This document shows, in pieces, positions 24,578-44,183 of a stretch of 64,000 nucleotides of DNA; position 1 is the stretch's first letter, and each line of letters opens with the position of its first letter. The position numbers were made by a program, and so were the translations under genes. This DNA comes from Candidatus Nealsonbacteria bacterium. Lineage in GTDB: Bacteria > Patescibacteriota > Minisyncoccia > Minisyncoccales > DAOVPY01. The DNA is taken from NCBI GenBank assembly GCA_030628945.1, contig DAOVPY010000001.1:136124-200123 (forward strand), read 5' to 3'. The notes under the pieces are model-generated. The model ran no database searches. It was not told the DNA's origin and saw nothing but the letters and a program-made list of their open reading frames with translations.

Positions 24578-24583
24578 TTAGTT

Positions 24584-26889: not shown

Positions 26890-26915
26890 AAAAGGACTGA
26901 GTTTTCTCAATCCCT

Positions 26916-27331: not shown

Positions 27332-27362
27332 GAGAATAAAGAGCAATCCCGTTTTTTATTAT

Positions 27363-27435: not shown

Positions 27436-27471
27436 CTTTTATTTTTAGGAATTTTATGCTATATTTGAAAA

Positions 27472-29270: not shown

Positions 29271-30180
29271 TATGTTTGCTTTACTCAAAAAAATAATTCA
29301 TTACGGCTGGCTGAATTTTCATCGGCAAAGCAGTTTTAGCGTGGTAACCATTTTTATTATGATGGTGGTTATTTTTTTGTTCACCTCTCTTTTTCTTTTT
29401 CAGGGAGCGGTCCAATTTTTAACTTTGAATTTGCAGGAAAAAATTGATATCAGCGTTTATTTCAATCAAGAGTCGTCAGAGCAGGAAATTTTAAAAATTA
29501 AAGAGGAATTAGCAGGAATTCCGCAAGTGGAAGACGTTGAATATGTTTCAAACGAAGACGCTCTGGAAAAATTTACCCTGAGACACCAAAACGATTCAAT
29601 GATAATGGAATCATTGGCTGAAGTCGGCGGCAATCCCTTTTTAGCTTCTTTAAATATCAGGGCGCGGGACTCGGCCCAATATGCCGGTATTTTCAATTTT
29701 ATAACCAATAGTTCTTTCAAGGAAACCATTGCCAAGGTTGACTATATTGAGAAAAAATCGATTATTGAACGACTTTTTTCTTTAACCTCTGATATCAACA
29801 AAGCCGGCATTATTTTTAGTTTGGTTCTGGCTTTCTTCGCTGTTTTGATAGCTTTTAATCAGGTTCGTCTGGCGATTCACAACTCCGGGAAAGAAATTAA
29901 AATTATGCGTTTGGTCGGGGCTCCGGATTTGCTGATTACCGGACCCTTTCTGGTTCAGGGAGTAATTATTGGAATTTTGTCGGTTCTTTTCTGTCTTTTG
30001 ATTTTCTTTCCCGCCTGCTTCTTTTTAAGCCCGAAATTAGAAATAATAATGCCGGGTTTTCATATCTTTCATTATTTTGTCAGCAATTTTTTCTTTATTT
30101 TCTTGATTCAGATGTTGGTCGGCGTGGGCATAGGGGCGTTTTCCAGTTTCATCGCCGTCAGAAAATACCTCAAAATTTAA
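29242..30180 (+). CDS. ftsX: Cell-division permease-like protein FtsX
   Basis: The topology is 4 TM helices with a large first extracytoplasmic loop. IKIMRLVGA is the conserved block. An alternative start lies at 29272. Confidence 0.8.
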   Translation: MKRGEDSYFNMFALLKKIIHYGWLNFHRQSSFSVVTIFIMMVVIFLFTSLFLFQGAVQFLTLNLQEKIDISVYFNQESSEQEILKIKEELAGIPQVEDVEYVSNEDALEKFTLRHQNDSMIMESLAEVGGNPFLASLNIRARDSAQYAGIFNFITNSSFKETIAKVDYIEKKSIIERLFSLTSDINKAGIIFSLVLAFFAVLIAFNQVRLAIHNSGKEIKIMRLVGAPDLLITGPFLVQGVIIGILSVLFCLLIFFPACFFLSPKLEIIMPGFHIFHYFVSNFFFIFLIQMLVGVGIGAFSSFIAVRKYLKI

Positions 30181-30251
30181 TGCCGGGTCGGCTAACGGTA
30201 GGCCAAATGCCCCTGGAGCATTGAATCTTGGTTCGAATCCAAGCCCGGCAG
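30181..30251 (+). tRNA. tRNA-Gln, anticodon CUG, with C at position 33
   Basis: Acceptor TGCCGGG/CCCGGCA (U1-A72) with discriminator G. D stem GGCT/GGCC, anticodon stem AATGC/GCATT with loop CCCTGGA, T arm CTTGG-TTCGAAT-CCAAG. It starts directly after the ftsX stop. Confidence 0.75.
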
Positions 30252-30416
30252 CACTTCGACTTCGCGGAGCGAAGGCGAAGTGCCCTGAGCTTGCCGAAGG
30301 GCAATCTCAGATAGGGCACTTTGATTTATAAAACATCACATTTTCGCTCCGCTACGCTCAGCGCAAGCTCTTCGCCGCGCGTCGAAGTGGGCTGAGTTCG
30401 TCGAAGCCCATTTTTT
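30252..30416 (+). other. GC-rich multi-hairpin element between tRNA-Gln and the GIY-YIG gene
   Basis: Hairpins lie at 30252-30282 (CACTTCG.CTTCGC-GGA-GCGAAG.CGAAGTG) and 30285-30310 (CTGAG.TTGCC-GAAG-GGCAA.CTCAG). A TGGGC...GCCCA+T6 hairpin (30388-30416) ends at the ATG. The element shares GCGGAGCGA and the TGCC-tetraloop-GGCAA hairpin with 18760-18802. Confidence 0.5.
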
Positions 30417-30674
30417 ATGTATTTTGTATATCTTCTACAGTGTGAAGATGGAAGTTTTTACACCGGAGTAACCTCAAATTTTGAAAAAAGATTTGATGAG
30501 CATAAAACAAAAAGTGGGGGTTGGCATACAAAAATTCATAAACCAGTTGAGATTTTATATACGAAAAAGTATCCAACAAAATTAGAGGCGCTCAGACGCG
30601 AAAAACAAATTAAAGGATGGAGGAGAGAAAAGAAGTTAAATCTAATTAAATTCGGCAAACCAATCATTCAATGA
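30417..30674 (+). CDS. GIY-YIG nuclease-family protein (UPF0213-like)
   Basis: The start MYFVYLLQCEDGSFYTGVTSNFEKRFDEH matches GIY...YIG with the conserved downstream R and E. Confidence 0.8.
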   Translation: MYFVYLLQCEDGSFYTGVTSNFEKRFDEHKTKSGGWHTKIHKPVEILYTKKYPTKLEALRREKQIKGWRREKKLNLIKFGKPIIQ

Positions 30675-30775
30675 ATTCAGGGTTATCCTGAACGAGTTTG
30701 AAGGCCAATTCTTAGCGCTCGGCCGGCCCTGAATTTATTGAAGGGTTCTCCCGACCGAGAGGCCTCTATAAATTT

Positions 30776-31096
30776 ATGGAAAAAGAAGATTTTAAAAAAG
30801 CAGAAAAGCTATTTAATGCCACACAAAAAGTAGTAGATTCTAAAATTCTCTCAGAGAAAGAAAAAGAGCCTTTCCAAAAAATAAATGCTCAACTTGCTGG
30901 TGTTCTGCTTAGTTCGTGGCTACCAAGGGATTGGGGACGGAAAATTATAATGTTAATTATTCTCCTCTTAGCTGTTTTTGGTGCCCTTAAGATAGATGTT
31001 TTATTTTTATTACTATTATTAATATTGCCAATTTTTTCGCCGAGAATGATGGGTGGATTAATAATGTTTATTGGTAGAATAATGGGAAATAAATAA
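30776..31096 (+). CDS. Small membrane protein, unknown function
   Basis: 106 aa with a soluble N-terminal half followed by two hydrophobic helices. Confidence 0.45.
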   Translation: MEKEDFKKAEKLFNATQKVVDSKILSEKEKEPFQKINAQLAGVLLSSWLPRDWGRKIIMLIILLLAVFGALKIDVLFLLLLLILPIFSPRMMGGLIMFIGRIMGNK

Positions 31097-31100
31097 ACCT

Positions 31101-31562
31101 ATGTTCGATTTTAAGAAAAAAAATCAAGCCGTTGAAGACGAATTACTCAAAGAATTTTTTCCGCATATTTTTGATAAATTCAAAAATTCTATTAGGGAAT
31201 ATTGGGGCAAGAAAGATAAAGAAAATTGGCAAACTATTTCTGAAAAATTAAAAGAAATAAACATAAAAACCACAGAAAAAACGGCGAAAATGATAGGTGT
31301 TAAGGAAATAAATAAAGAAATTATAGAAAGATTAGACGCCACCGGTAGTATTATAAGCAATATGCTTATCGCTCAGGGAGAGCTTTGTTCCAAAGAATGT
31401 AGTAGAAGAGAAATGACAGATGAAGAGACTAATTTTACACTCTATTTTTTTTGGAAAACTTTGAGCCAAAGGCAATTCATATTTCCGAAAGATATTTCTT
31501 TATTGGAAGAATTTTTTACTTGGTTTTCGTTGAAAAAGGAGAATAAAAAAATTAAAAAATAG
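31101..31562 (+). CDS. Hypothetical protein
   Basis: 153-aa ORF, 4 nt after the previous stop. No motif recognised. Confidence 0.45.
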   Translation: MFDFKKKNQAVEDELLKEFFPHIFDKFKNSIREYWGKKDKENWQTISEKLKEINIKTTEKTAKMIGVKEINKEIIERLDATGSIISNMLIAQGELCSKECSRREMTDEETNFTLYFFWKTLSQRQFIFPKDISLLEEFFTWFSLKKENKKIKK

Positions 31563-31615
31563 GGGATATTGACCCTTATTTTTTAGTTAATTTTGACAAA
31601 ATCAACTGGTGACCA

Positions 31616-31711
31616 ATGAGCGAAGGAGTTTTTTACCGCTTTGGCATTTTAACCGACCGGCTAAAGGGCTTTGAGTCTGAGGAGGATTTACTAAAATTAA
31701 TTGAAAAATAG
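31616..31711 (+). pseudogene. 31-codon ORF/remnant MSEGVFYRFGILTDRLKGFESEEDLLKLIEK, homologous to a start-less remnant at 32318-32410
   Basis: The two copies encode ...LTDRL(K/R)GFESEEDLLKLI.... Several differences between them are synonymous (cta/tta, gag/gaa). Confidence 0.4.
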
Positions 31712-31766
31712 AACTATTTTAAAGAAATATAAAGAATAATTAGATTAGAGAATTAATTTAAAACTT

Positions 31767-32366
31767 ATGATTAAATCAAGAGATGAATATTCAGAAAATC
31801 TTGAAAGCCAATATAGAAGAATGGGAAGAATTTATGAAGAAATTATAAAAGATTTTGAAAGCACGACTTTTTCAAAAAGTTTCCAAGAAAGATTAGATAA
31901 AGTCTATGATTTTTTTTTAATCTGTTACCACCTTAGAGAATGGGTTAAAAAAGATGCTAAGGTTGGTCAGACAATCAAAGATAAATTGCCCACTTTTGAA
32001 AAAGAAGATTCTCCCGTTCACTTCCAAATGTGCAGAGATTTATGTAATAGGTCTAAACATGTCACACTAGAAACGAAAGAACATTATAAACCTAACGATG
32101 TTAATACAAAAATTGTTCCTTGTGGAGGTGGTATTTTTTCGGTCCACAAAAAAGAATTAGAAGAAGCACGAAATAAAAAAGAGACTATTCATCTTAAAGA
32201 AGAAGATGAAATATTTTTAGGTAACTTTTTCGTCACTTTTAGGGGTAGAAATTATGACTTAAAGGGAGTTGTTCAGGCCTGCATGCATGAGTGGAAAGTC
32301 TTTTTTGAAGAAAATGATTTATTATTACCGAGGAGTACCCCTTTTCCTATCTCACCGACCGGTTAA
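31767..32366 (+). CDS. Hypothetical protein
   Basis: 199-aa ORF. FFLICYHLREWVKKD ... LCNRSKHV is faintly reminiscent of HEPN-type helical nuclease families. This resemblance is very weak. Confidence 0.45.
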   Translation: MIKSRDEYSENLESQYRRMGRIYEEIIKDFESTTFSKSFQERLDKVYDFFLICYHLREWVKKDAKVGQTIKDKLPTFEKEDSPVHFQMCRDLCNRSKHVTLETKEHYKPNDVNTKIVPCGGGIFSVHKKELEEARNKKETIHLKEEDEIFLGNFFVTFRGRNYDLKGVVQACMHEWKVFFEENDLLLPRSTPFPISPTG

Positions 32367-32415
32367 GGGGTTTTGAGTCTGAAGAAGATTTATTAAAATT
32401 AATACAATAAATAAA

Positions 32416-33222
32416 ATGTCTTTAAAGCTAATACAATTTAAAAATAAGAAAAGGGACATCATTGTCGTTTTAATAACTTTTATATCAACTATTTTACTTA
32501 ATAGTTTTGTTTTTACTACTAATAAGTTAATCGAAAAAGAATTTTTTACGGATAAAAATTATGAATTCACCATAGAGGATTCTCTGGGTTATTTACCGTT
32601 GATAGAGGGTAATAGGTGGGTTTATGAAGGATACATCGAAGAGCAGGTAGGGCATAAAAATAACGAACCGATAACAGAAAAAGAAGAATTTGATAATTAT
32701 GAGGTCACAGCAAAAGAGGTAATAAAACGTGCGGATGCCTTAGTCGTCTTGATAGAAAATTCATTCTCTATCCTGTCTTTAGAAGAAATAAGAGAGAAGA
32801 AAAGATGTTATGAGTTATGGTTTATAACTGGTGGGAAAATTTATACGATTCAAAACAGCGATTTGGCTATTCATTATTTTCAACAAATAAAAAATAAGGA
32901 AAATGTGGCAATAGATCATTCTTTGGTTGGTTTAAAGTGGGAATTCCCATTTTACGTGGACAAGAAATACGATTTTTTTCAAGAAGGAGGATTTATTTGG
33001 GAATATAATTGGTATAAGAAAAAAATAACTGAAAGTAAAAAGTTAAATATCGCGGGCGTTATATATGATAAAGAATGTTTTAAGATTGAGAACGCTGGCG
33101 TAGGATTTACGCAATCAAGTTGGTTCTGTCCCGGTATGGGCGAAGTCGAGTATGATTATCATCACAACGGTGCTGTAACTAACGTTCACTACATTCTTAA
33201 GAATTCTTTTATTAAGTATTAA
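32416..33222 (+). CDS. N-terminally membrane-anchored hypothetical protein
   Basis: 268 aa with one TM helix (IIVVLITFISTILLNSFVF). Confidence 0.45.
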   Translation: MSLKLIQFKNKKRDIIVVLITFISTILLNSFVFTTNKLIEKEFFTDKNYEFTIEDSLGYLPLIEGNRWVYEGYIEEQVGHKNNEPITEKEEFDNYEVTAKEVIKRADALVVLIENSFSILSLEEIREKKRCYELWFITGGKIYTIQNSDLAIHYFQQIKNKENVAIDHSLVGLKWEFPFYVDKKYDFFQEGGFIWEYNWYKKKITESKKLNIAGVIYDKECFKIENAGVGFTQSSWFCPGMGEVEYDYHHNGAVTNVHYILKNSFIKY

Positions 33223-33247
33223 AAACTAAAATATAAGTTTTATAAAA

Positions 33248-34132
33248 ATGTTCAAAATAACAATTGGGAGAAACATAAATGAAGTAATCAAGAATATTGG
33301 AAAATTGTTGGCTTTTTTAATTTTTCTATATGGTTTAGTTAATGCCATTATTGGACTTCACGGATATTTTAAAGACCTTATTTTTAAAAACAATAATTTA
33401 TATCAGAGGTTGTCTCAAATAAATACATTGGCGAGTGATGGTTATGTAACTGAATTATTCGGAGAGCCATTCTTAATAAGAAAATTACCGGCAGATTATC
33501 AATTTTCTGGAGACTCCGTTGCGAGCATAGAAAATTTAACCGAGAGAATTTATAGTGATGAAAAATTTTATTTACAGACGATAAGTGGAGAAAATAATGA
33601 GGTTGTGGCCTATTCTATTACAACTAGAGATAATGATTTTAATCCGTTAGTTCCTTTGGAGTTATCACGAGGAGTTCAGAATAGTGATGGTTCTTATGGT
33701 GCAAAAAAATTTATATCTGACTTAAAATTAGGAAAATCACATTTCCAAGACTTAAAAGATGAAACTCCTTTAAAAATTAGTTTCAATAGTCCAAATCAAC
33801 ACACCTTTTATTTAGAGGGGCATTATTTTGGTAGGCCCGGTGGTTATAAATATTATTTGTTTGGCATTTCTCCTTATGGAAGTCACGAAGAAAGAGACGA
33901 AATGTATGATTTGGCCCATGCCTTTATGGAGGGAAATAATGTTTTAGATGACGCAGATTTTTTGAGATGGCGTTCGGAACAGAAGTTTAATACATTCGGG
34001 ATAATCGATCTTACATTACTCTCTTTCGACATTTCTACTTCAACAGCAGAGATTAACTCAGATTTATTAGATTACTTCTTTTATCTTGGTTTAGGTCCGA
34101 CAGCAGATGTAATTTATAATTTAAATTGGTAA
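33248..34132 (+). CDS. N-terminally membrane-anchored hypothetical protein
   Basis: 294 aa with one TM helix (LLAFLIFLYGLVNAIIGL). Confidence 0.45.
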   Translation: MFKITIGRNINEVIKNIGKLLAFLIFLYGLVNAIIGLHGYFKDLIFKNNNLYQRLSQINTLASDGYVTELFGEPFLIRKLPADYQFSGDSVASIENLTERIYSDEKFYLQTISGENNEVVAYSITTRDNDFNPLVPLELSRGVQNSDGSYGAKKFISDLKLGKSHFQDLKDETPLKISFNSPNQHTFYLEGHYFGRPGGYKYYLFGISPYGSHEERDEMYDLAHAFMEGNNVLDDADFLRWRSEQKFNTFGIIDLTLLSFDISTSTAEINSDLLDYFFYLGLGPTADVIYNLNW

Positions 34133-34294
34133 CTCGAATTTATTAGTATTATATTTTATATTCACTATTCTTTCCATTGCCGTGGTCCTTTTAAGTGGGA
34201 CACCCTACTGTCCCAAACGGAACACCCCTATTCTGTGTCCCATTTTAACTTCAAAACACCCCTGACCGAGAGGCGTTATTTGTAAAATAATTAG

Positions 34295-34320
34295 AAAATT
34301 CGCCAAACAGGCGAATTTTT
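34295..34320 (+). terminator. Rho-independent terminator (bidirectional shape)
   Basis: AAAATTCGCC-AAACA-GGCGAATTTT followed by a further T. Confidence 0.55.
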
Positions 34321-34337
34321 GCTATAATCAAACAATG
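34320..34337 (+). promoter_or_regulatory. Extended -10 promoter (TGcTATAAT) only 6 nt upstream of the methyltransferase ATG; probable leaderless mRNA
   Basis: TG at 34320-34321, TATAAT at 34323-34328, ATG at 34335. There is no SD sequence. Confidence 0.4.
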
Positions 34338-35138
34338 AAGCCGTACTACCAAAAAGATAATTTTACTTTATATAATGCGGATAGTTTGGAATTTTTGAAA
34401 GAACTTCCTGAAAATTCAGTAGATATGATTTTTGCCGACCCGCCGTATTTACTTTCAAACAACGGATTTACCGTTCATGCCGGCAGGCGAGTGAGTGTAA
34501 ATAAGGGCGAATGGGATAAAAGCAATGGATTTAAAAAAGATTTTGATTTTCATCTGAATTGGATTAAGGCCTGCAAAAGAACCTTAAAGCCGCAGGGGAC
34601 TATTTGGATAAGTGGGACTTATCACTCTATTTATCAATGCGGATTTATTTTACAAAATACTGGATTCCATATCTTAAATGATATTTCATGGTTTAAACCG
34701 AATGGGTCGCCAAATTTAAGTTGTAGATATTTTACCGCAAGCCACGAAACTTTGCTTTGGGCAAAAAAAGATAAAAAGACAAATCATGTTTTTAACTATG
34801 CAAGAATGAAAGTCGGAGATTGGCCAGAGGACTTTCTAAAAAAACCAAATACACAAATGCGTTCGGTTTGGGCTATAAATACTCCAAAACCAATAGAGAA
34901 AAAATTTGGCAAACACCCAACGCAAAAACCAACAGATTTATTGAAGCGAATTGTTCTCGCGAGCACCAATAAAGGCGATTTGATTATAGATCCTTTTACT
35001 GGAAGCTCTACAACAGGACTTGCCGCTTATCTTTTTGACAGGAGATTTATTGGCATTGATAATGAAAAAAAATATTTAGACTTATCAATAAAACGATTTA
35101 AGGAGTTGGATAAAAATTTAAAAAATAAATTAAAATAA
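34335..35138 (+). CDS. Type II DNA methyltransferase, beta-class N6A/N4C (N6_N4_Mtase family)
   Basis: Motif IV is FADPPY near the N terminus. Motif I is DPFTGSSTTG near the C terminus. Confidence 0.85.
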   Translation: MKPYYQKDNFTLYNADSLEFLKELPENSVDMIFADPPYLLSNNGFTVHAGRRVSVNKGEWDKSNGFKKDFDFHLNWIKACKRTLKPQGTIWISGTYHSIYQCGFILQNTGFHILNDISWFKPNGSPNLSCRYFTASHETLLWAKKDKKTNHVFNYARMKVGDWPEDFLKKPNTQMRSVWAINTPKPIEKKFGKHPTQKPTDLLKRIVLASTNKGDLIIDPFTGSSTTGLAAYLFDRRFIGIDNEKKYLDLSIKRFKELDKNLKNKLK

Positions 35139-35142
35139 TTTT

Positions 35143-35670
35143 ATGAAAAAAGGCGGCATAGGCGGAGCTAATACAAAAACAGGACTTTATTTTGAGGGTA
35201 AAGTTGATTTTTTGACTTTCATAGCAAAGCAACAGAATTATAGTGTAAAAGGAAACACAATTTTTTATAATGGTGAAAAAGTTGCCTTGTCTTTTAAGAA
35301 ATATGGACTGTATAAATATTTAGAGAAAAATGGAGTAGATTATAAAAAATTTATTTCCAGCAAACTTTTACCTGATGACGCGATATTTGTTATTACTAAT
35401 AATACTTTTTTTATTCTTGAAATAAAATTTCAGCAAGGTGGCGGCTCTACAGATGAAAAATTACAGACATGCGATTTTAAGATTAAACAATATAGAAAAC
35501 TGTTATCGCAATTAAATGTTGAGGTGGAATATATTTATATTTTGAATAACTGGTTTAAGCAACCTAGATATAAAGATGTTTTAGATTATATTATTTCAAT
35601 AGATGGTTGTTCGTATTATTTTAATTATTTGCCGTTACAAAAAATAGGTTTACCGGTACCGAAGAATTAA
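35143..35670 (+). CDS. Type II restriction endonuclease candidate (PD-(D/E)xK)
   Basis: 175 aa, starting 4 nt after the methyltransferase gene. PDDAIFV...ILEIKFQ fits the D...ExK motif. Confidence 0.6.
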   Translation: MKKGGIGGANTKTGLYFEGKVDFLTFIAKQQNYSVKGNTIFYNGEKVALSFKKYGLYKYLEKNGVDYKKFISSKLLPDDAIFVITNNTFFILEIKFQQGGGSTDEKLQTCDFKIKQYRKLLSQLNVEVEYIYILNNWFKQPRYKDVLDYIISIDGCSYYFNYLPLQKIGLPVPKN

Positions 35671-35716
35671 TTGAAAAATAAAATTATAAATTTAGGAGAA
35701 ATAATTATTTTAATAT

Positions 35717-36325
35717 ATGTTAGATCCCAAAACATTAAATGAATTTACCAATAAAGCTAATCACGCATATCAGCAATTTTGTGTGTGGATGTATGCGAAT
35801 AACGAATTTGTTAAATATCAGGAAGAGTGGAATAAAATTCCAGAATCAAGAAAACTTTTTAAAACAGAGGAGTTTTCTAGAGAAAAATGTTGTAAGTATA
35901 AAAATTTTTGGGATGTTGTGATCACAAGCCTTCAACAGGGTTGGATAATGGGAGTTATTCGACTTTTTGATTCACCTTATTTTTTAAGAGATATAAAAAA
36001 AGAGCACCCGAGACTATCTTTATACTATATATTAGAATTACTAGAAGATAGTGATTTGGAGCAATCCATTAAAGAAGAAGTAGATAGACATAAAAACTTT
36101 ATTGATTCAATCAAAAAACAACGTCCTATTTTAGCCCATAATGAGATAAAGCCAGTTGACAGGAAAATAGAGGCTGGCATCGAAAATTTATTCGAGGCTT
36201 TAGACAATATAATTACAAAGATAAAAAGCCAGAAACCCCATCTTAAGAACTGTAATAATATCGGTCGTGAATATATGGAAAAGTTGTCCAAGTGTGGCGT
36301 TGAGGAAGTTTTTGAGAAATTATAA
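35717..36325 (+). CDS. HEPN-like (AbiU2-type) protein
   Basis: 202-aa helical protein. KKQRPILAHNE contains an R-x4-H HEPN motif near the C-terminal third. Confidence 0.45.
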   Translation: MLDPKTLNEFTNKANHAYQQFCVWMYANNEFVKYQEEWNKIPESRKLFKTEEFSREKCCKYKNFWDVVITSLQQGWIMGVIRLFDSPYFLRDIKKEHPRLSLYYILELLEDSDLEQSIKEEVDRHKNFIDSIKKQRPILAHNEIKPVDRKIEAGIENLFEALDNIITKIKSQKPHLKNCNNIGREYMEKLSKCGVEEVFEKL

Positions 36326-36335
36326 TTAAATTAAA

Positions 36336-36692
36336 ATGACAAATAAAATAAAAAGGAAAATAAAGGATTGTGAGTTAGAAATTAATCTATTTAGGACTTG
36401 TATTACTGATGGCTCTTGGCTTGTTTCTCGTATCGATGTTTTGCATATAAATACGGGTAAAAAGGCGGCTTATGTTTTTGGCACTGATGCCATTGAGGCG
36501 ACTATTTACGAGAAAAATAACCCAACCCAAAAATTGGTCGATTTAGCTATAGACACATTGATAAATCATCTTGAAAAAACTCCGGACGATTTTAAGATCG
36601 GTTTCTTTAGATTTGAATTCGATGGTTGTCAATTTGATTTTTGCGAGCAAGAACCTCGTTGGGCTAATTATGATTGCGGGATAATAGATTAA
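36336..36692 (+). CDS. Hypothetical protein
   Basis: 118-aa ORF, 10 nt after the previous stop. Confidence 0.45.
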   Translation: MTNKIKRKIKDCELEINLFRTCITDGSWLVSRIDVLHINTGKKAAYVFGTDAIEATIYEKNNPTQKLVDLAIDTLINHLEKTPDDFKIGFFRFEFDGCQFDFCEQEPRWANYDCGIID

Positions 36693-36697
36693 AGATT

Positions 36698-37123
36698 ATG
36701 GAAGATAATAAGCCAGAATTAAATATTTCGATAAGCAGAGAACATAAGGAAAATTTAGAAGCGGTAAAGGAAGCTTTTAAGGGTTTTGATGTGCATATAG
36801 ATGCAGGCTACATGAGGTTTTCGGAGGGAGATTTGCCGATGCAAATTTTTATATTTATCTCTAAGGCTTTTATAGTTAGAGCCGCTTGGGATTTATTTAA
36901 AATCGGAATTAAAAAGATTTATGAAAAGTTTCCCAAAGCTCGACTTGTTATAAGGGACAAGGATTCGATTATGTACACGGTCAAGGTAGATTTTACGGTT
37001 AATGTCATAGTCGTGCCGGATAGGTGGAAGGAATTTGAAGATATAAAAACTCTTGATGACGTGATTGAACATCTGAAATCAAAGGATAATATAAATGATG
37101 CCAAGAAAAATGAGACATCTTGA
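36698..37123 (+). CDS. Hypothetical protein
   Basis: The ATG at 36698 (MEDNKPELN) is preferred over the overlapping TTG at 36674. Confidence 0.45.
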   Translation: MEDNKPELNISISREHKENLEAVKEAFKGFDVHIDAGYMRFSEGDLPMQIFIFISKAFIVRAAWDLFKIGIKKIYEKFPKARLVIRDKDSIMYTVKVDFTVNVIVVPDRWKEFEDIKTLDDVIEHLKSKDNINDAKKNETS

Positions 37124-37157
37124 ATTATTCCTAGATATTGTCTCATTTGTCTCATTT
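37109..37157 (+). repeat. Repeat R1, copy 1: hairpin AATGAGACA/TGTCTCATT plus tandem TGTCTCATT x2
   Basis: It spans the stop of the 36698-37123 gene. Copy 2 is at 42849-42898. Confidence 0.6.
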
Positions 37158-37204
37158 CCCGAACAAAACGCTCTGGCTGTGAATTTCTGTGAAACACCGC
37201 TAAA

Positions 37205-37295
37205 GTTCCAAAACGGAACATAGCACTGTTCCATTGGAACACTGCCTTTCTGTGTTCCGTTTGTTCCGTTTTAGTTTCAAAACGTCCCGACCGAG
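37205..37295 (+). repeat. GGAAC-hairpin module, copy 2 (copy 1 at 34195-34272)
   Basis: It contains GTTCC-AAAAC-GGAAC, GTTCC-ATT-GGAAC and GGAACAC-N9-GTGTTCC (37236-37258), then TTCAAAACGTCCCGACCGAG. IG4 carries GGAACAC-N9-GTGTCCC (34219-34241), then TTCAAAACACCCCTGACCGAG. Confidence 0.55.
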
Positions 37296-37360
37296 ACGGG
37301 TCGGTGGGACACCATAAAAACCGCCTAATTTACCCTTAAAACTCGGGTTCCAAAACCGAG
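37286..37360 (+). repeat. Repeat R2, copy 1 (75 nt)
   Basis: The sequence is CCCGACCGAGACGGGTCGGTGGGACACCATAAAAACCGCCTAATTTACCCTTAAAACTCGGGTTCCAAAACCGAG. It shows about 6 differences from the copy at 42923-42996. Confidence 0.7.
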
Positions 37361-37489
37361 TACGGCAGAATCATTATTATCGCAGGGTCAAAAATCCCTG
37401 TTTTTTGTTTCCAAATTTTATCAATTTATGTTATTATTGAATTGTAAAAATCAAATAGCCTAACCCTCGTAGATTTTCTATGAGATATG

Positions 37490-37643
37490 GCACAAAAAAC
37501 CCGCTACAGGATAGAAAGCTCGTCGTCAGAGCACCTGTAGCGGGTCATATCTCGAAAGGGGTATGGGTGGCGCAAGCCATCGCTGGCGGCGAGCTTTGTG
37601 CTTTTCGTTAGAAGGTATAAATAATAAAAAACCCGCTACAGGT
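37490..37643 (+). promoter_or_regulatory. Candidate structured 5' leader (three-element switch/pseudoknot) upstream of the metallophosphoesterase gene
   Basis: ACCCGCTACAGG occurs at 37499-37510 and 37631-37642. Its exact complement is at 37534-37545. AAAGCTCGTCG (37515-37525) is complementary to CGGCGAGCTTT (37587-37597). A GNRA hairpin GGTGGC-GCAA-GCCATC lies at 37566-37581. Confidence 0.35.
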
Positions 37644-38645
37644 ATGCCAAATCAAAATAAACTTTGGAAAACTAATAAACTTATAATTTATTTTTCTGTT
37701 TTGTTAGTAATCTTTTTACTTGGCGGATTGTTTTATAGAATAGGTTTTTATCACCAGATTTTAGATAAAACAGGATTAGATAAATTATTATGTTCATCGC
37801 AATCTGATTACTTATATCCCAATGAGCAAATAAAACAGCCAGAATTATTTAACAAAGACACTGATTATCCTTTTACTTTTATTGTATATGGAGATAGCAG
37901 AGAACCGGCAGGAATTGAAAAACAGATGATAATAGATAAAATTATTAAAGAAAATCCTGATTTTGTAGTTCATACTGGCGATATGGTTTATTACGGGAAC
38001 GAACACCAATGGAACATCTTTGACATTTTTGAGGGACGAATTATTAAAAAAGGTATCCCATTTTATCCGGTATTAGGAAATCACGAATATAATATAATAG
38101 AAAGTTATCATCCGAAAGAAATTGACAAGCAACTCCAGCTTTATTTTAATCGCTTTCCAGAACTTGAAAATAGACAATGGTATTCTTTCATATACGGCAA
38201 TAGCGAGTTTATTATTTTAGACAGCAATTCTCATTTGTTAGATAGTTATCAATATGATTATCTTGTTGAAAAAATGAAGGATAAAAATGGTTTTCTTTTC
38301 ATTTTTTTACACCATCCTTTTTACACGAAAGCAATCGGAAAAATAATATCGCCCGAAAGAAAAAAGGTTGCTAAAATGATTAAAAATACAGATATAGTGT
38401 TTGCCGCAGATATTCATAACTATGAAAGGTATAAAATTGATGGAATAGATTATATCACTACTGCTGGGGGCGGGGCTAATCCAAGACAAATTAACAGAAG
38501 TCAAGATGATTTTTACAATAAAAAAGGAGCAACCTATCATTATTGTAAAATCAAAGTTTTTGAAGGCCATTTTATTTTTCAGATGATACGATTAGATAAA
38601 AATAAATGGATAATATCAGATACTTTTACTAAATATATTAAATAA
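37644..38645 (+). CDS. Membrane-anchored calcineurin-like metallophosphoesterase
   Basis: The start is taken at MPNQNKLW, followed by a TM helix. Motifs are GDSRE, HTGDMVYYG, GNHEY, LHHP and DIHNYER. The 27-codon upstream extension in the ORF track (from 37563) overlaps the structured leader. Confidence 0.75.
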   Translation: MPNQNKLWKTNKLIIYFSVLLVIFLLGGLFYRIGFYHQILDKTGLDKLLCSSQSDYLYPNEQIKQPELFNKDTDYPFTFIVYGDSREPAGIEKQMIIDKIIKENPDFVVHTGDMVYYGNEHQWNIFDIFEGRIIKKGIPFYPVLGNHEYNIIESYHPKEIDKQLQLYFNRFPELENRQWYSFIYGNSEFIILDSNSHLLDSYQYDYLVEKMKDKNGFLFIFLHHPFYTKAIGKIISPERKKVAKMIKNTDIVFAADIHNYERYKIDGIDYITTAGGGANPRQINRSQDDFYNKKGATYHYCKIKVFEGHFIFQMIRLDKNKWIISDTFTKYIK

Positions 38646-38744
38646 AATCAAACAAAGTTTTGAAAAAGATAAAACAAAAAGCCGAAAATTTAATTGAGAA
38701 ATAAAATTGTGGAAAATACTGAGAAAAAAAGTTTTTGGAAAAAT

Positions 38745-38987
38745 ATGAGAAGGGATAGCGGAGAGCTTAGAGTCCTGATTGTTTTTTCCTTTTCGCTTAT
38801 TGCTTTAATGTTTGGGATTTCAGGAGAAAAGATAATAAAAAGTGGCGTTGCCGGAGAGTGGGAGATTGTTTCAAGTTTTAAGGGGTGGACGCTTTATATT
38901 ACTAGCATTTCTCCTGGTTTATTGGTTTTTGTTTTAGCTACTTTAATTCTTTGTTGGGGATTGCCGAGAGTATTAAAAAATCTATGA
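38745..38987 (+). CDS. Small two-TM membrane protein
   Basis: The ATG at 38745 (MRRDSGELRVLIVFSF...) is used here. The ORF track begins at the TTG at 38694. Confidence 0.4.
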   Translation: MRRDSGELRVLIVFSFSLIALMFGISGEKIIKSGVAGEWEIVSSFKGWTLYITSISPGLLVFVLATLILCWGLPRVLKNL

Positions 38988-39010
38988 AAGAAAAAATTAA
39001 GAAATAATCT

Positions 39011-39142
39011 ATGAAATGGATTAAAGATTTTACAAATTGGCTAACCGATGATGATAGCGGGGTAAGAATTATTATCTTTATTATTATCGTAATCTTTTTG
39101 GTTGGCATTTTCCTTACGGGGGGGGTTCAAATTATCTACTGA
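39011..39142 (+). CDS. 43-aa single-TM peptide candidate
   Basis: MKWIKDFTNWLTDDDSGVRIIIFIIIVIFLVGIFLTGGVQIIY. It is not in the ORF track because it is shorter than 60 aa. Confidence 0.3.
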   Translation: MKWIKDFTNWLTDDDSGVRIIIFIIIVIFLVGIFLTGGVQIIY

Positions 39143-39258
39143 GGAGGATAGAACTCTTGATGATTCGGGGTGGCAATCTCCTGGAAATTAAAATTTTCCT
39201 ACTTAAGAAATAGTGAGTGGCAGGGTGAAACAAAATATACTAAATTGAGTTTTTATTT

Positions 39259-39735
39259 ATGAATAAAGAAAAAAGAAAAAAAGTAGAAGTAATAGTGGCG
39301 GCGACAAGATTGGAAAATTGGAATGTCGCGAGGCGAAGAGGGATTGCTTCTCAAGAAGAAGCCGCAGCCGATGCAGATTATATTGCATTTTTTCAGGTTG
39401 GACGAAAAAATGAACCTTCAGCGATTACTCATATTGCAAGGGTAAAAAAAATTAATCATAAGGCGATAGTGGATGAATTTTTTAAAAAAAATCCAGAAAT
39501 TCTTATGCTGTCTCAGAAAGAAAACAAAGGGTGGGAGAACGATATACATCATACAGAATATCAATTAGAAGAGATAAAGGAATTGCCAAGGCCAATTATA
39601 GAAAGAAAAAGAGTGGGCACTAGATGCCAAGTAAGGCTTTATACTAAGTATGAACAAATTAAAAAAGCAAAGTATTTAAGCGACATTAAAACCATCAGTC
39701 AGATTGAGATGAATGAAAAGAAAAAGCACAAATAA
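39259..39735 (+). CDS. Hypothetical protein
   Basis: 158-aa ORF. No motif recognised. Confidence 0.45.
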   Translation: MNKEKRKKVEVIVAATRLENWNVARRRGIASQEEAAADADYIAFFQVGRKNEPSAITHIARVKKINHKAIVDEFFKKNPEILMLSQKENKGWENDIHHTEYQLEEIKELPRPIIERKRVGTRCQVRLYTKYEQIKKAKYLSDIKTISQIEMNEKKKHK

Positions 39736-39744
39736 AAATAAAAA

Positions 39745-39952
39745 ATGATTTCTGAAGAAAGACTGAAAGAATTCAAAAAGATTTATAAAAAAAGTGTTCA
39801 AAAACGCAGAGAAGAAACAAAATAGCAAAAAGGAATCAGAGGAAGCGAAAAATAATTTATTAGGATTTTTTGATTTACTTCTCAAGATTGATAGGAGAGT
39901 AAATCCTCAAAGATATAAATTAAAAAGAGGAGAGACCTGTTGGAATCAGTAA
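39745..39952 (+). pseudogene. Disrupted small ORF, copy 1 (+1 frameshift in an A7 run)
   Basis: It reads MISEERLKEFKKIYKK, then shifts frame and continues VFKNAEKKQNSKKESEEAKNNLLGFFDLLLKIDRRVNPQRYKLKRGETCWNQ. The length 39745-39952 is 3n+1. Confidence 0.5.
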
Positions 39953-39961
39953 AATTATAAA

Positions 39962-40984
39962 ATGGTTAAAATAAAAAGAATTCGTGGCATATTAAGTGAC
40001 AAGCTTCTTAATTTTTTTATAGAACGAAGGATAAATAATCTTGGTGCTTTGCGATTTTTTATTTACATTTACGCTTTATTAACAAAAGGTTTTTATGTAG
40101 GGGGACATAAAAATGCAAATCACCATTTTATCCCAAAGTTTTTACTTAAAAAATTTCGTATTATAAATACCGGAAACATTTTCATGTATATGAGAGGAAA
40201 AAGATCTACTCCAGTTTCTATTAAGAAGGAGGCCGCAGTTGTTCCAAATTTATACTCATTTCGTGATAAAAAAACCAAAGAATTGAGCGACTTTATGGAG
40301 AAACATATTTTTGCACATGTGTTGGAAAAATATGGATCGAGAATAGTCAGCCGTATTTTAAAAACTGACAAAATTGATCTAACGCATTTAGAAGAAAGCG
40401 TTCTTGTAAACTTTATTGCATTTCAATATACACGCACCCCGAGATTCTTTTTTCAATTAGAACGCGTTTTAACTTATCTCGTGAAGGAAAAGAGTGTTAC
40501 GCCAAAAGAAATGGTAAAGCCGAATTTCGCAAGAGATGTATTTATAAATAATAGTTATCAATTGCGACCTCCGGAAATCGCTCAATTTCTACAAAAAACA
40601 TCACTGAGAATTACTGGCGTGAAAAATTTAATGTTGGGTCTATCTGTTCAGATAGCGGATGACATATCGGTAAATATATTTTCCGGTAAGCTGAACTTAT
40701 TGCGCGCTACGGGATCAGAGTTCTTTTTTTTATCAGACAGTCCAGTCGAAATATTTAATTTTGGTAACAATAGATCGGTCGGTCCATTTTTTTGGGAATT
40801 GAACAATGACTTATTAATATATCTCCCTATATCGCCGACACGTTGCATTTATTATACTCATCGGATCAGTCCAGTATATCCAACTATCAACGCTAGTCTG
40901 ATAGAGAAGTTGTCGCTTCAAAGCATCCACGAATTTGCTTATTCGAATAGAAATTCATCAGTTATTGATAACGCATTGAAATAA
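39962..40984 (+). CDS. DUF4238-family protein
   Basis: The N-terminal motif NHHFIPKFLLKKF is the hallmark HxxP.FYL..F motif of DUF4238. Length is 340 aa. Confidence 0.6.
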   Translation: MVKIKRIRGILSDKLLNFFIERRINNLGALRFFIYIYALLTKGFYVGGHKNANHHFIPKFLLKKFRIINTGNIFMYMRGKRSTPVSIKKEAAVVPNLYSFRDKKTKELSDFMEKHIFAHVLEKYGSRIVSRILKTDKIDLTHLEESVLVNFIAFQYTRTPRFFFQLERVLTYLVKEKSVTPKEMVKPNFARDVFINNSYQLRPPEIAQFLQKTSLRITGVKNLMLGLSVQIADDISVNIFSGKLNLLRATGSEFFFLSDSPVEIFNFGNNRSVGPFFWELNNDLLIYLPISPTRCIYYTHRISPVYPTINASLIEKLSLQSIHEFAYSNRNSSVIDNALK

Positions 40985-40989
40985 TAGTT

Positions 40990-41178
40990 ATGCAAATTTC
41001 AGAACAAACCGTTAAAAGACTTCAGGAAATATTTAAATAAGATTACGGCAGAAAATTAAGCGAAAAAGAGGCCTTCGACGCCGCTTATAATTTATTAGGA
41101 TTTTTTGATTTACTTCTCAAAATTGATATGAGAAAAAACCCTCATATATATAAATTAAAAAAGAAAAAGATTTATTAA
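40990..41178 (+). pseudogene. Disrupted small ORF, copy 2 (in-frame TAA at 41038-41040)
   Basis: It reads MQISEQTVKRLQEIFK, then a stop, then DYGRKLSEKEAFDAAYNLLGFFDLLLKIDMRKNPHIYKLKKKKIY. About 50 nt are near-identical to copy 1 (39851-39900 versus 41086-41135). Confidence 0.5.
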
Positions 41179-41202
41179 AGTTATTAAATATAAGAAAATA
41201 AT

Positions 41203-42843
41203 ATGGTTTATCAATCAAGCAGCAAAAAAGGGGATAAAGCTAGGCTACTTTTTGAGGATTGGAACAAATATGTAGAATCAACCCTTGGTACTGAACCATG
41301 GATTATTGTTTACGCATACCATAAGGATAATTATGAAAGAATGGCATACTATTCTGCTTTAATTCCAAGGAGTATGAGAGAACAAGTTCTTAGCAAAAAT
41401 GATTGGGATTTATTACTTGGTTGGGGTCGTCCTGGTCATATTTATTATGGACAAACAAATGAAGAAAAATACTTTAGATTTGGTAACGATGAAGGCATTG
41501 AACCATTAGTTGTTTATCGTAGTTTTCCGGGAACTGGTATGAAAAGCTACGCAGAGGTATCCGAGGAATTTCGCCATTATTTTAGTCTTTATGATGATGC
41601 AAAGCATAAAAAATATATCGCATTTGACGAAGATGGCGAGCCAGAAGATGTTATCGTATTAGATGAAAACGAAATTAAAATAAAACTAAGATATATAAAA
41701 GAATTTCTTACTAATAAAGATATGTATTTGGCTTTGTTTTTTGAGCACGATAGGGATTCTATATACTCTTTAAAAGAATTAGAGCTACCGAAAATATCAA
41801 AAACTATCAAGGGAGAAAATTTTATTTATGACTACTATACAGCTGATCTTGAATTTATTCCCGAAGGAGAAAAAACAAAATCATTTGCTAGAGTAATGGG
41901 GAAGAAAATGATAGAAGGGCTTAAGGATTATAAACCACTAAGTATTTGGTCCACTAACGAAAATAAAAAATATGTCAGTTTTATAATCGATACCGACAAC
42001 GAAGGAAAAGATATTGAATATATTTGTAATCCTAAGAAATTATCTAATTACTTCGGAGCTAATCCTGGCGCTCCTCACTACTTAACCTCCGTATTTTTTA
42101 AAAGAGAAGTCTTAGGTAAGTATTATGCAGATCCAAATAGGTTTTCGGTTGAAGATGGGTATTTACGGGGCAGAGGATTAAGAATAGATAATAATCACGA
42201 AAAATATGTGATAGTATTTTTGGGTGACTTAGGATATCTATCAGAAAAAGAACAACTCTATTGGAAAAGCTATAATGTTCATTCAGATGGTGTCATAAGT
42301 AAGGTTACTTTTAAAAGAGGTTTTTTGGCTCAATTTACTGATCCCGAAAGAGAAGATTTACTTTTCAAATATAAATTTGAAATTTTTAAAAATAAATGGT
42401 TTAAAAAATTCAACTGGTATTTATTTAAACCTTTCTTGGAACAGGATGAGCATTTTTATACTTCCCTTCGCATTCCTTTATCTGAGAATCAATTAGAATT
42501 TGATCAACAAATACTTTCATTGACCAAAACATTGATTGATTCTTTGAACGAAGAAAAAATTTCTGAATCTATCACTAAAAAAGAGAATCAAGGAGGGATT
42601 ACGAAACTAGAAGAATACCTTAAAGCAAGGGGAGTATCTAATGGCAATCAACAAATAATATTTTTGAGAAGATTGCAAGATTTAAGAGATGGAGTTGGGC
42701 ATAGGAAAGGGACAAAATATTTGAGGGGTGCTAGTTATTTTAGATTAGCCGAAAATAATTTTTCTGAGGTTTACGGGGAGATTTTAAATCAAGCTATTCA
42801 ATTATTAGATTTTCTAGAACAACATTTTTTAGACCTTAAATAA
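41203..42843 (+). CDS. Hypothetical 546-aa protein with HEPN-like C-terminal tail
   Basis: LRRLQDLRDGVGHRKG contains R-x4-H within a helical C-terminal region. The N-terminal ~400 aa are unassigned. Confidence 0.45.
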   Translation: MVYQSSSKKGDKARLLFEDWNKYVESTLGTEPWIIVYAYHKDNYERMAYYSALIPRSMREQVLSKNDWDLLLGWGRPGHIYYGQTNEEKYFRFGNDEGIEPLVVYRSFPGTGMKSYAEVSEEFRHYFSLYDDAKHKKYIAFDEDGEPEDVIVLDENEIKIKLRYIKEFLTNKDMYLALFFEHDRDSIYSLKELELPKISKTIKGENFIYDYYTADLEFIPEGEKTKSFARVMGKKMIEGLKDYKPLSIWSTNENKKYVSFIIDTDNEGKDIEYICNPKKLSNYFGANPGAPHYLTSVFFKREVLGKYYADPNRFSVEDGYLRGRGLRIDNNHEKYVIVFLGDLGYLSEKEQLYWKSYNVHSDGVISKVTFKRGFLAQFTDPEREDLLFKYKFEIFKNKWFKKFNWYLFKPFLEQDEHFYTSLRIPLSENQLEFDQQILSLTKTLIDSLNEEKISESITKKENQGGITKLEEYLKARGVSNGNQQIIFLRRLQDLRDGVGHRKGTKYLRGASYFRLAENNFSEVYGEILNQAIQLLDFLEQHFLDLK

Positions 42844-42848
42844 CTGTT

Positions 42849-42898
42849 AAATGAGACACTATAATATACCCCTAAGTAGTGTCTCATTTGTCTCATTT
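42849..42898 (+). repeat. Repeat R1, copy 2
   Basis: A 12-bp hairpin AAATGAGACACT/AGTGTCTCATTT is followed by a second GTCTCATTT. Confidence 0.6.
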
Positions 42899-42922
42899 GT
42901 GCTATAATTTGGCAATAAAGAG

Positions 42923-42996
42923 CCCGACTGAGACGGGTCGGTGGGACACTCTAAAAATCGCCTAATTTACCCTTAAAACTCGGGTTCCAGACCGAG
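42923..42996 (+). repeat. Repeat R2, copy 2 (74 nt)
   Basis: See copy 1 at 37286-37360. Confidence 0.7.
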
Positions 42997-43131
42997 GTTG
43001 CCAGCCACGAAAAGTGGCTTCGCCACCTCGTGGCAAGCCGCTTTGAAGTGAGTCGGGCGATGAATTGCGTAGCAATTCATTTTCATTTTGCGCGATAACT
43101 TAGCGCTCGGTTCTCCCGACCGAGCTACTAC

Positions 43132-43156
43132 AAAATCGCCAAAATGGCGGTTTTTT
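43132..43156 (+). terminator. Rho-independent terminator
   Basis: AAAATCGCC-AAAAT-GGCGGTTTT followed by further T residues. Confidence 0.5.
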
Positions 43157-43297
43157 GTTAGAATAAAGCAAGAAAGAAAAAATTAATTGAGAAATAAACA
43201 TCATGCGCAATAAATATAACACCCTTACAAACTTGAGAATGTAAGGATGTTATAATTGATAAATGTAGATGTGAGGGGAAAAATGGGGTTAGGTCTG

Positions 43298-43403: not shown

Positions 43404-44183
43404 ATGGTTAAAAATTTACACCAAAAAATTAAACTGTTGAGGCAAAAAAACGATTTCTCGCAGGAGTATATGGCTAAAGCATTGAAAATGTCCCGCCCAA
43501 CCTATATGCAAATTGAGCAGGGTGAGCGTGAACTCACCATAACCGAAGCAAAAAAACTTGCCAGTATTTTTAGTATTTCGTTTGAGGACTTTCTTGCCGG
43601 TAAAGCGCCGAAGTACAAAGTGACTATAGAGCGGAAGAAAACATCCAATAAACCTTCTGATTTTCAAATTCGTGTAACGAAAAAGAATTTAGAGAAATTT
43701 AAGCAAGTATTATTGTATGTACTTGGAAAAGTTGGCAGTAAGCCGAATGTTGGTGAAACTGTTATTCATAAATTGCTTTATTTTATTGATTTTGACTACT
43801 ATGAGAAATTTGAAGAAAGTTTGATGGGAGCCACATATATTAAAAACTATCATGGACCAACTTCAAAAGAGTTGGGGCCAATTCTTGCGGATATGCAGAA
43901 AAAAGGAGAGATTGAGGCAGTAAAAAGTAAGTATTTTAAGTACGAACAAAAAAAATATCTCCCACTCAAGCGGCCAAACCTTGATGTGCTTTCAGCGCGC
44001 GAAATAGAACATATTGATGATGTTTTAGCGCGCCTATCTGATAAAAACGCGCGAGAAATAGAAAATTATTCGCATAACGATATCCCATGGAAGACCGCTG
44101 AAGATGGCAAGCCGCTTTCTTATGAAAGTGTTTTTTATCGTGATGAGCGCTATTCCGTAAGAAATTATGACGATGAACTTTAA
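43404..44183 (+). CDS. HTH-XRE / Panacea (DUF4065, SocA-like) domain antitoxin
   Basis: The N-terminal region LRQKNDFSQEYMAKALKMSRPTYMQIEQGER is an XRE-type HTH. The central region VIHKLLYFIDFDYYEKFEESLMGATYIKNYHGP is typical of DUF4065. Confidence 0.7.
   Translation: MVKNLHQKIKLLRQKNDFSQEYMAKALKMSRPTYMQIEQGERELTITEAKKLASIFSISFEDFLAGKAPKYKVTIERKKTSNKPSDFQIRVTKKNLEKFKQVLLYVLGKVGSKPNVGETVIHKLLYFIDFDYYEKFEESLMGATYIKNYHGPTSKELGPILADMQKKGEIEAVKSKYFKYEQKKYLPLKRPNLDVLSAREIEHIDDVLARLSDKNAREIENYSHNDIPWKTAEDGKPLSYESVFYRDERYSVRNYDDEL

Follow-up and report, generated by a model that had tools for sequence, protein, structure and literature searches.

A LOOT RNA with a pseudoknot and a 3' extension, a candidate bistable leader of a metallophosphoesterase gene in Nealsonbacteria

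In translational switches of the preQ1-II and SAM-II types, and in attenuators of the trp type, the expression platform is a pseudoknot or a set of mutually exclusive helices. In the mRNAs of hok-type type I toxins, long-range pairings between the 5' and 3' ends and fold-back pairings keep a small membrane protein untranslated. The GAAA tetraloop and its 11-nt receptor form a tertiary module of group I and group II introns, RNase P and the c-di-GMP-I riboswitch. The subject of this report, an RNA of the LOOT family, bears likenesses to all of these. It is found in a 64,000-nucleotide stretch of a Candidatus Nealsonbacteria bacterium genome (contig DAOVPY010000001.1; the whole stretch is called the window below), where it lies on the + strand upstream of a gene for a metallophosphoesterase.

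We take the name LOOT to be composed of Latescibacteria, OD1, OP11 and TM7. The RNA is reportedly one of the 224 motifs of Weinberg et al. 2017. It is not discussed in the main text of the 2017 discovery paper, and a literature search for a LOOT function returned no paper. Rfam gives the family, RF03000, the entry type 'Gene; sRNA' (small RNA), trans-acting and of unknown function, and LOOT has been described as having about 43 bp in six helices, without a pseudoknot (PMC7657543). It is an orphan structured RNA of the candidate phyla radiation, a group that makes up a very large part of the bacterial tree, has hardly been cultivated, and has tiny genomes and few known regulators. Here we describe a pseudoknot and further pairing elements that extend the catalogued motif, and we propose, with about half of our confidence behind the proposal, that positions 37457-37643 of the window, comprising LOOT and a 3' extension, are a cis-acting bistable 5' leader in the mRNA of an exported metallophosphoesterase and not only a free-standing sRNA. 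An 'sRNA of unknown function' would thereby acquire a model that mutagenesis can test, in which termination is conditional and, in some lineages, the start codon is occluded as well. If the cis-acting reading is right, it would point to a common control of surface proteins in episymbiotic bacteria.

The LOOT RNA and its pseudoknot

When the whole window was scanned against Rfam, a single strong non-tRNA match was obtained, to RF03000 at 37457-37581 on the + strand. The match covers model positions 1-121 of 121 and scores 90.2 bits against a gathering score of 46.4 (E = 7.8e-16), and a local Rfam search of the leader region returned the identical match. The sequence at 37457-37581 is a full-length LOOT RNA. 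The initial annotation of this DNA, which was made from the sequence alone, had described a pseudoknot-capable leader that it could match to no riboswitch class; the RNA does belong to a catalogued family, one that is filed as a trans-acting sRNA and not as a riboswitch, and no Rfam riboswitch family matches the leader at E values up to 5. The G+C content of the leader region is about 50%, that of the surrounding island about 31-35%. The 209-nt leader folds with a z score of -6.4 relative to dinucleotide shuffles, and a 12-mer that forms the core of its complementary elements occurs at three sites in the 64 kb, all within the leader, so that the complementarity does exceed chance. The nearest LOOT relatives come from metagenome-assembled genomes (MAGs) labelled Saccharibacteria and Nealsonbacteria; the window itself is AT-rich and tRNA-dense.

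Alignment to the Rfam model indicates that the LOOT hairpin series, namely P1, an A-rich linker, P2, P3 with its GAAA loop and P4 with its GNRA loop, is complete at this locus. The structured unit begins with P1 (37457-37492), further upstream than the initial annotation had placed it, and the internal loop of P1 reads CCUAAC (37459-37464) and UAUGG (37486-37490). There follows the first copy of a 17-mer, AAAAAACCCGCTACAGG, at 37494-37510, consisting of an A-run (J1/2) and element a, the 5' strand of P2; the 3' strand of P2 is element a' (37534-37545). P3 occupies 37546-37565, with the GAAA loop at 37554-37557. P4, GGTGGC-GCAA-GCCATC with a GNAA loop at 37566-37581, is the last element of the model. 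The GCAA hairpin and the a/a' helix that had been noted previously are thus P4 and P2 of LOOT, and what had been overlooked is P1, with its receptor motif, and P3. The distal 8-bp part of the model P2 is unformed at the locus (five positions are flagged), with a 4-bp stem in its place. The published 43 or so base pairs in six helices correspond exactly to the nested helices in the Rfam model; this model stops at P4 and leaves the 3' extension of the locus outside. The RNA of the locus belongs to a known family, whose catalogued motif it extends by the pseudoknot, a hairpin P5 and an element a2.

Relatives of this RNA were collected with one sequence pattern over P3 and P4. A strict form of the pattern gave five matches in species genomes, three of them true LOOT RNAs (two from Saccharibacteria MAGs and one from a Nealsonbacteria MAG), and a relaxed form gave 51 loci in metagenomes, about 38 of which are LOOT RNAs and the others high-GC chance matches (L004, L006-8, L011, L017-18 and others). 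LOOT is absent from the viral contigs, phage records and plasmid records, where the single viral match (L058) is a chance one. Thirty-two distinct LOOT sequences were aligned with MAFFT, without reference to structure (alignment A1), and the statistics that follow refer to these loci unless another number is given. The cells of P1, P3 and P4 are paired in 86-100% of cases: P4 reaches 100%, and P3 (helix 5) 97.6%, with double changes in six of its eight pairs. Positions A40-A42 of the A-rich linker are invariant, as is the GAAA loop of P3. The P1 internal loop has a receptor-like motif in 32/32 loci, in the variants CCUAAG/UAUGG, CCUAAA/CAUGG and CCUAAC/UAUGG, which differ at the wobble position (G/U, A/C, C/U); five loci have the canonical CCUAAG/UAUGG, and the window has the CCUAAC variant. 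We take this internal loop to be the sequence of the 11-nt GAAA-tetraloop receptor. From the sequence, the P3 GAAA loop is probably docked on it.

The pseudoknot is formed by two elements, one inside and one outside the Rfam model. Element b (37515-37529), in the apical loop of P2, is complementary to element b' (37583-37597), downstream of P4, over 15 nt, of which 87% are Watson-Crick pairs and 15/15 are paired when G.U is included (-24.2 kcal/mol); the shorter complementarity that had been reported, between 37515-37525 and 37587-37597, is present and is part of this longer one. In alignment A1, 95.4% of the b:b' cells are paired and 8/15 pairs have changes on both sides, a level reached in 0/500 shuffles. 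One C-G pair, for example, is replaced by G-C in six sequences and by A-U in one. When the partner is slid by one to three columns, pairing falls to 36-55%. RNAalifold predicts the same helix independently, and two of its positions are G.U pairs in 25-29 sequences, indicating that the RNA is transcribed from the + strand. Thus, the a-b-a'-b' pseudoknot of the initial annotation is real and lies outside the curated LOOT model. A further pairing proposed at the same time, of GCACAAA (37490-37496) with TTTGTGC (37595-37601), does not covary: both sequences exist, but their pairing is found in 71% of cells versus 70% in shuffles. Within the apical loop of P2 there is also a local stem, P2b (37518-37521 with 37529-37532), which has modest covariation (seven cells with changes on both sides versus 2.0 in shuffles) and competes with the pseudoknot.

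The 3' extension and two competing folds

The b:b' helix consists of 12 GC-rich base pairs extended by A:U pairs, and a conserved U-rich tract (UUUGUGCUUUU, 37595-37605) adjoins b'. Across 31 loci, the 11 nt after b' are 68% U, as compared to 21% in the next 30 nt. Because the U-rich tract comes directly after it, the pseudoknot helix looks like a conditional terminator. It would be an unusual one in that its 'loop' is 53 nt of structured RNA, pseudoknotted relative to P2, and a simple terminator scanner reports a weak local hairpin only. Overlapping the tract is element b2 (37600-37611), which mimics b and pairs with b' (37583-37594) as the local hairpin P5 in most loci. Duplexes of b' with its own b2 have a mean energy of -13.7 kcal/mol, versus -7.6 kcal/mol for shuffled partners (p = 1.6e-9), and b2 differs between lineages, being either U-rich with G.U pairs or C-rich. 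Since both use b', the pseudoknot and P5 are mutually exclusive. In two loci, L015 and L029, b2 (UUCCCCUCCA or UUCCUCUCCA) has a second complementary partner, the Shine-Dalgarno sequence, of the GGAGG type, that belongs to the downstream open reading frame (ORF); formation of the pseudoknot would there release an anti-Shine-Dalgarno strand, and for L015 the modelled start-site accessibility falls from 0.45 to 0.22.

Element a2 (37626-37643) is a second A-run and copy of a that ends 1 nt before the start codon. The repeat finder places the second AAAAAACCCGCTACAGG copy at 37626-37642, with the ATG at 37644, and finds the exact complement of the core at 37534-37545, between the two copies, all as initially annotated. 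Element a' can pair over 12 bp with a upstream (-24.3 kcal/mol) or over 13 bp with a2 downstream (-26.2 kcal/mol). An a2 within 0-2 mismatches of the locus's own P2 5' strand is present in 9/35 loci, and a tenth locus (L039) has three mismatches. Its distance from the start codon is always 0-5 nt. In a cross-locus control, 0/791 comparisons came within two mismatches, and the a2 of Saccharibacteria reads CTAGAGC where that of the window reads CTACAGG, each following its own P2. Loci with other P2 sequences are without a2.

The two sets of pairings define two folds of the leader. The minimum-energy nested structure of 37457-37665, at -78.2 kcal/mol, is fold B, in which the 13-bp a':a2 helix closes a junction of P3, P4 and P5 and the start-region UGCCA pairs with UGGCA of P1; fold B is also the nested minimum in the other a2 loci that we checked. 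Fold A has a nested part of -62.8 kcal/mol plus the pseudoknot at -24.2 kcal/mol, from which the pseudoknot penalty is yet to be deducted. Given these energies, the two folds are about equal in stability, at roughly -78 kcal/mol each, and the three-element competition among a, a' and a2 that had been proposed is energetically balanced. As in an expression platform, the pseudoknot competes with P5 in most loci, and in the window lineage P2 competes with a':a2 at near-equal energies.

From these pairings we can suggest how the leader may operate. Fold A would be the native state, with P1-P4 formed, a probable contact between the P1 receptor and the GAAA loop of P3, and a b:b' pseudoknot of 12-15 bp. 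The pseudoknot helix, with the adjoining U-rich tract, would serve as a conditional intrinsic terminator, and in transcripts that read through in fold A the A-rich start region, which has no Shine-Dalgarno sequence, would be left single-stranded. In fold B, b2 would capture b' as P5 and a2 would capture a' in the 13-bp helix that ends 1 nt before the AUG, thereby burying the start site. We infer that termination and translation respond to the fold, in which case expression would be set by whatever stabilizes fold A, with a metabolite, a protein or Mg2+ as candidates.

The downstream gene and rival explanations

The gene that follows the leader (37644-38645, +) encodes a 333-aa calcineurin-like metallophosphoesterase (PF00149, E = 1.4e-13) with an N-terminal hydrophobic anchor (hydrophobicity 2.9). 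A promoter-like site is located about 20 nt 5' of P1 (37408-37437, +; TTTCCA, an 18-nt spacer and TG-n-TATTAT), and other loci have comparable TG-extended -10 boxes 25-45 nt upstream of P1. Upstream of this site in the window, a terminator-like hairpin with a T-run (GCAGGG-TCAAAAAT-CCCTGT, then TTTTTTG; 37382-37410, +) closes the preceding transcription unit. In nearly all loci with enough downstream sequence, an ORF on the same strand begins 33-106 nt after P4; the upstream genes lie on the same strand in 13 cases and on the opposite strand in 15. The distance from the U tract to the ATG is at most 25 nt in nine loci, which leaves no room for a second promoter, so the ORF must there be transcribed from the LOOT promoter. 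An N-terminal hydrophobic segment is found in the product of the first ORF at 26/32 loci, compared with 26/133 of the other ORFs within 6 kb (Fisher p ~1e-10). Thus, the 32-locus comparison ties LOOT positionally to the first gene of blocks encoding exported or membrane proteins, and this link to ORFs for predicted exported proteins argues against a purely trans-acting role for LOOT.

Conservation in three lineages spans the promoter, LOOT and the region up to the start codon and then drops to background, with unrelated ORFs and unrelated flanks on both sides. Closely related LOOT modules in the loci L002, L020, L033 and L048 (Saccharibacteria), and likewise in L009, L038 and L042, share 90-100% identity over a stretch that opens about 130 nt, or about 15 nt, before P1 and ends at the start codon, and the genes on either side of them are completely unrelated; either gene turnover is very fast or the module itself is mobile. 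In another pair of nearly identical loci, the downstream ORF has 65 aa in L021 and meets an early stop after eight codons in L056, where it may be a pseudogene. The upstream and downstream proteins are mutually unrelated, and a conserved protein partner was rejected for that reason. A leader peptide was also considered, from a short ORF behind a Shine-Dalgarno-like GGAG in b' with NUG 4 nt later (M-F-...), and was rejected: the start position is GUA, AUA, UUA or CAU in about one quarter of loci, and the peptides are not conserved.

These observations also allow a more general reading, which we advance tentatively and hold to be somewhat more doubtful than probable: that in candidate-phyla bacteria LOOT, rather than being a trans-acting sRNA, combines promoter, leader and start site in one portable module, present in single copy, and gates varied genes for envelope or secreted proteins by means of its bistable fold. 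The tetraloop-receptor contact and the pseudoknot would hold the native state, the pseudoknot helix doubling as a conditional terminator, and the mimic strands, b2 and in some lineages a2, would unzip it and could bury the start codon. If this is true, LOOT would be a new class of cis-regulatory RNA answering a cell-surface-linked signal.

Several points weigh against a cis-acting bistable leader. The sample of loci is biased, since the search pattern fixes parts of P3 and P4, although P1, P2 and the tails still vary widely, and both the ORF calls and the hydrophobicity test are heuristic. Burial of the start codon is restricted in its distribution. The duplex between LOOT and the start region has a z score of -4.6 in loci with a2 (n=9) versus -0.4 in loci without it (n=22), and in the latter 22 loci neither LOOT (z ~ -0.4) nor b2 (z ~ -0.1) is complementary to the start region. 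Occlusion of the start codon is therefore an addition made in some lineages and not the general LOOT mechanism, and family-wide start-site occlusion was rejected; of the occlusion initially predicted for the window, it stands that a2 recurs, matches its own P2 and abuts the start codon, but only as a lineage-specific trait. In loci without a2, moreover, start-site accessibility is similar in the pseudoknot and P5 states. Formation of a 15-bp helix from a 23-nt hairpin loop is sterically demanding, and coexistence of P2 with the full pseudoknot may be doubtful. Fold A would be the first to form during transcription, and its conversion to fold B could be slow. Rfam's filing of LOOT as an sRNA, and the occurrence of one LOOT per contig and per assembly, as would be expected of a housekeeping RNA, point in the same direction. 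Finally, the downstream genes do not form a coherent metabolic or transport regulon. Pfam domains among 28 downstream proteins are Metallophos, SNase, YceG, FtsK_gamma and NucS_C, once each, the rest being without a match, and the sole trait common to the downstream proteins is the N-terminal hydrophobic segment. The absence of a common pathway is unlike a riboswitch regulon, and the gene context implies no ligand. With a metallophosphoesterase domain in 1/28 of these proteins, LOOT is not a phosphoesterase leader as such; the cis-regulatory phosphoesterase leader of the initial annotation is thus upheld as a structured + strand RNA and not as one dedicated to that enzyme.

The main rival is a free-standing sRNA: LOOT would be a trans-acting or protein-binding housekeeping RNA that ends at the U tract, with the downstream gene sharing its promoter through leaky read-through, and b2 and a2 would serve only to refold the transcripts that read through and thus keep them from resembling the mature sRNA. 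We consider this possible, though on the whole unlikely. It accords with the Rfam entry type 'Gene; sRNA' and with the copy number, a single LOOT per contig over 128 kb and likewise a single one in each assembly of the genome scan, and equally with the variable flanks on both sides, the downstream genes without a common pathway, the terminator-like GC-rich helix and conserved U tract, and a compact tertiary design (tetraloop/receptor and pseudoknot) that is typical of stable functional RNAs. Against this, b2, a2 and the start region, all beyond the U tract, are conserved and complementary to LOOT strands; nine loci lack room for a promoter of the ORF's own; and a same-strand downstream ORF in nearly all loci, 81% of them for exported or membrane proteins, is not what a purely trans-acting gene predicts.

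The other two rivals are both unlikely. If the 17-mer repeats were a scar of duplication or recombination at the DNA level, for example an att-like core joining ORFs to a portable promoter, the a':a2 pairing would be functionless. We give this little credence, even though a2 copies a including its unpaired A-run and in L003 matches a rather than the complement of a', the start codon is the exact end of the conserved module and the ORFs past it are unrelated, the neighbourhood often includes genes of mobile or defence type (integrase, ParB, primase, terminase, restriction-modification), and in the window direct repeats bracket a 5.7-kb block that contains LOOT. No extra copy of the core exists at the far end of the downstream gene or elsewhere in the 64 kb, no recombinase is consistently nearby (an integrase is near one of about 33 loci), LOOT was not found in the viral, phage or plasmid collections, and a2 is kept in two diverged lineages before at least seven unrelated ORFs, and is never more than 5 nt from the ATG. 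The near-isoenergetic folds also indicate selection on the RNA. Least probable of all, to the point that we all but discount it, is that the region is coding and the complementarities lie in an N-terminal extension of the phosphoesterase, starting at ATG 37563 (360 aa) or TTG 37596 (349 aa). The start calls do disagree: the frame is open from 37563 to 37644, the ORF track starts at 37563, and a public scaffold record has the 349-aa product from TTG 37596, inside b' and behind a Shine-Dalgarno-like GCGAG, while a contig of another assembly, in ENA, has 333 aa from ATG 37644. Both of the upstream starts are inside the LOOT region, however, and 37563-37597 takes part in P3, P4 and the pseudoknot, covarying as RNA with many G.U pairs. 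The ORFs that LOOT precedes are unrelated, lie in different frames and are often separated from it by stop codons; about one quarter of loci have no start codon for the short upstream ORF that might follow b'; and the product from 37644 opens in typical fashion, with charged residues ahead of a hydrophobic anchor. The suspicion in the initial annotation that the start at 37563 is wrong was well founded, and the public annotations that begin the phosphoesterase within the RNA can be corrected.

Surroundings and comparison with known systems

The LOOT locus lies in an AT-rich accessory island (about 30300-43200) that starts right after tRNA-Gln (30181-30252). Upstream of the island, eight tRNA genes (Ile, Val x2, Leu, Phe, Gly, Thr and Gln) are spread over 12 kb (18606-30252) among housekeeping genes that include release factor and FtsX. 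The island holds a GIY-YIG nuclease ORF (30417-30674), an N6/N4 DNA methylase (34335-35138) beside a 175-aa ORF, an AbiU2-like HEPN protein (35717-36325) and a DUF4238 gene (39962-40984), and an HTH-SocA/Panacea antitoxin-like protein is encoded at 43404-44183. A 16-mer, GGTTCTCCCGACCGAG, at 30744 and 43109 might mark the island ends. A 67-nt element, CCCGACyGAGACGGGTCGGTGGGACAC...CTCGGGTTCCA, occurs twice, at 37286-37352 and 42923-42989 (94% identity), each time preceded by a similar hairpin block, AAATGAGACA...TGTCTCATTTGTCTCATTT, at 37108-37157 and 42849-42898 (78%). The pair brackets a 5.7-kb block with LOOT, the phosphoesterase, small membrane ORFs, the DUF4238 gene and an ORF of 546 aa. 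The element is confined, among the fetched loci, to contigs of the same organism, and its fold is unremarkable (z = -1.7). The DUF4238 gene and the 546-aa ORF each have, just upstream, one copy of a 111-nt direct repeat (39852-39962 and 41087-41197, 78% identity); they appear to have a leader or promoter region in common. At 37197-37272, in the spacer of 330 nt that precedes LOOT, tandem TGTTCCGTT repeats and GTTCC/GGAAC palindromes form a cluster, which could be an array of protein-binding sites. In about 33 loci, restriction-modification genes are often encountered at up to 6 kb from LOOT (N6_N4 methylase x4, Type ISP x2, C5 methylase), along with genes of mobile elements (integrase, ParB x2, DnaG-type primase x2, terminase large subunit, Zeta toxin, RadC and PIF1); these are raw counts and do not constitute an enrichment.

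A number of identities for the locus were considered and rejected. An integron-like or site-specific cassette does not fit a 12-mer that occurs only inside the leader and an integrase near one of about 33 loci. A type I toxin-antitoxin system does not fit products of 51-354 aa that include enzymes, and no minus-strand RNA family matches the leader, where minus-strand promoter-like and terminator-like sites are weak consensus matches only. A group I-like intron was rejected for want of a G-binding core or adequate size, signal recognition particle RNA or 6S RNA for want of an Rfam match, a SecM-like export monitor because neither Sec nor YidC genes lie close by, and a surface-protein expression site with silent copies because the 17-mer has no additional copies.

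Compared with described systems, the window RNA shares with the LOOT family P1, the A-rich linker, P2, the P3 GAAA hairpin and the P4 GNRA hairpin, and the window and 31 relatives add to the catalogued LOOT the covarying pseudoknot, the U tract and P5, with a2 at the start codon in one subgroup. Its likeness to the GAAA tetraloop and receptor, through CCUAA(G/C/A)...(U/C)AUGG in the P1 loop and the invariant GAAA of P3, is one of sequence only. The leader resembles the hok-type mRNAs in what would be successive refolding via mimic strands, in start occlusion and in the often small hydrophobic downstream ORFs; it differs from them in that no antisense RNA or overlapping reading frame is seen, in the lack of any sequence relation, and in downstream proteins of 51 to 354 aa, some of them enzymes (Metallophos, SNase, YceG). 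With riboswitches and attenuators it has in common its 5' position, exclusive pairings (b:b' versus b':b2 and P2b, and a:a' versus a':a2), a helix and U tract before the ORF, and one state that would sequester the start site. Unlike riboswitches, LOOT has few conserved unpaired nucleotides and one copy per genome, start sequestration is confined to the a2 lineage, and the downstream genes are alike only in export or membrane location, not in pathway.

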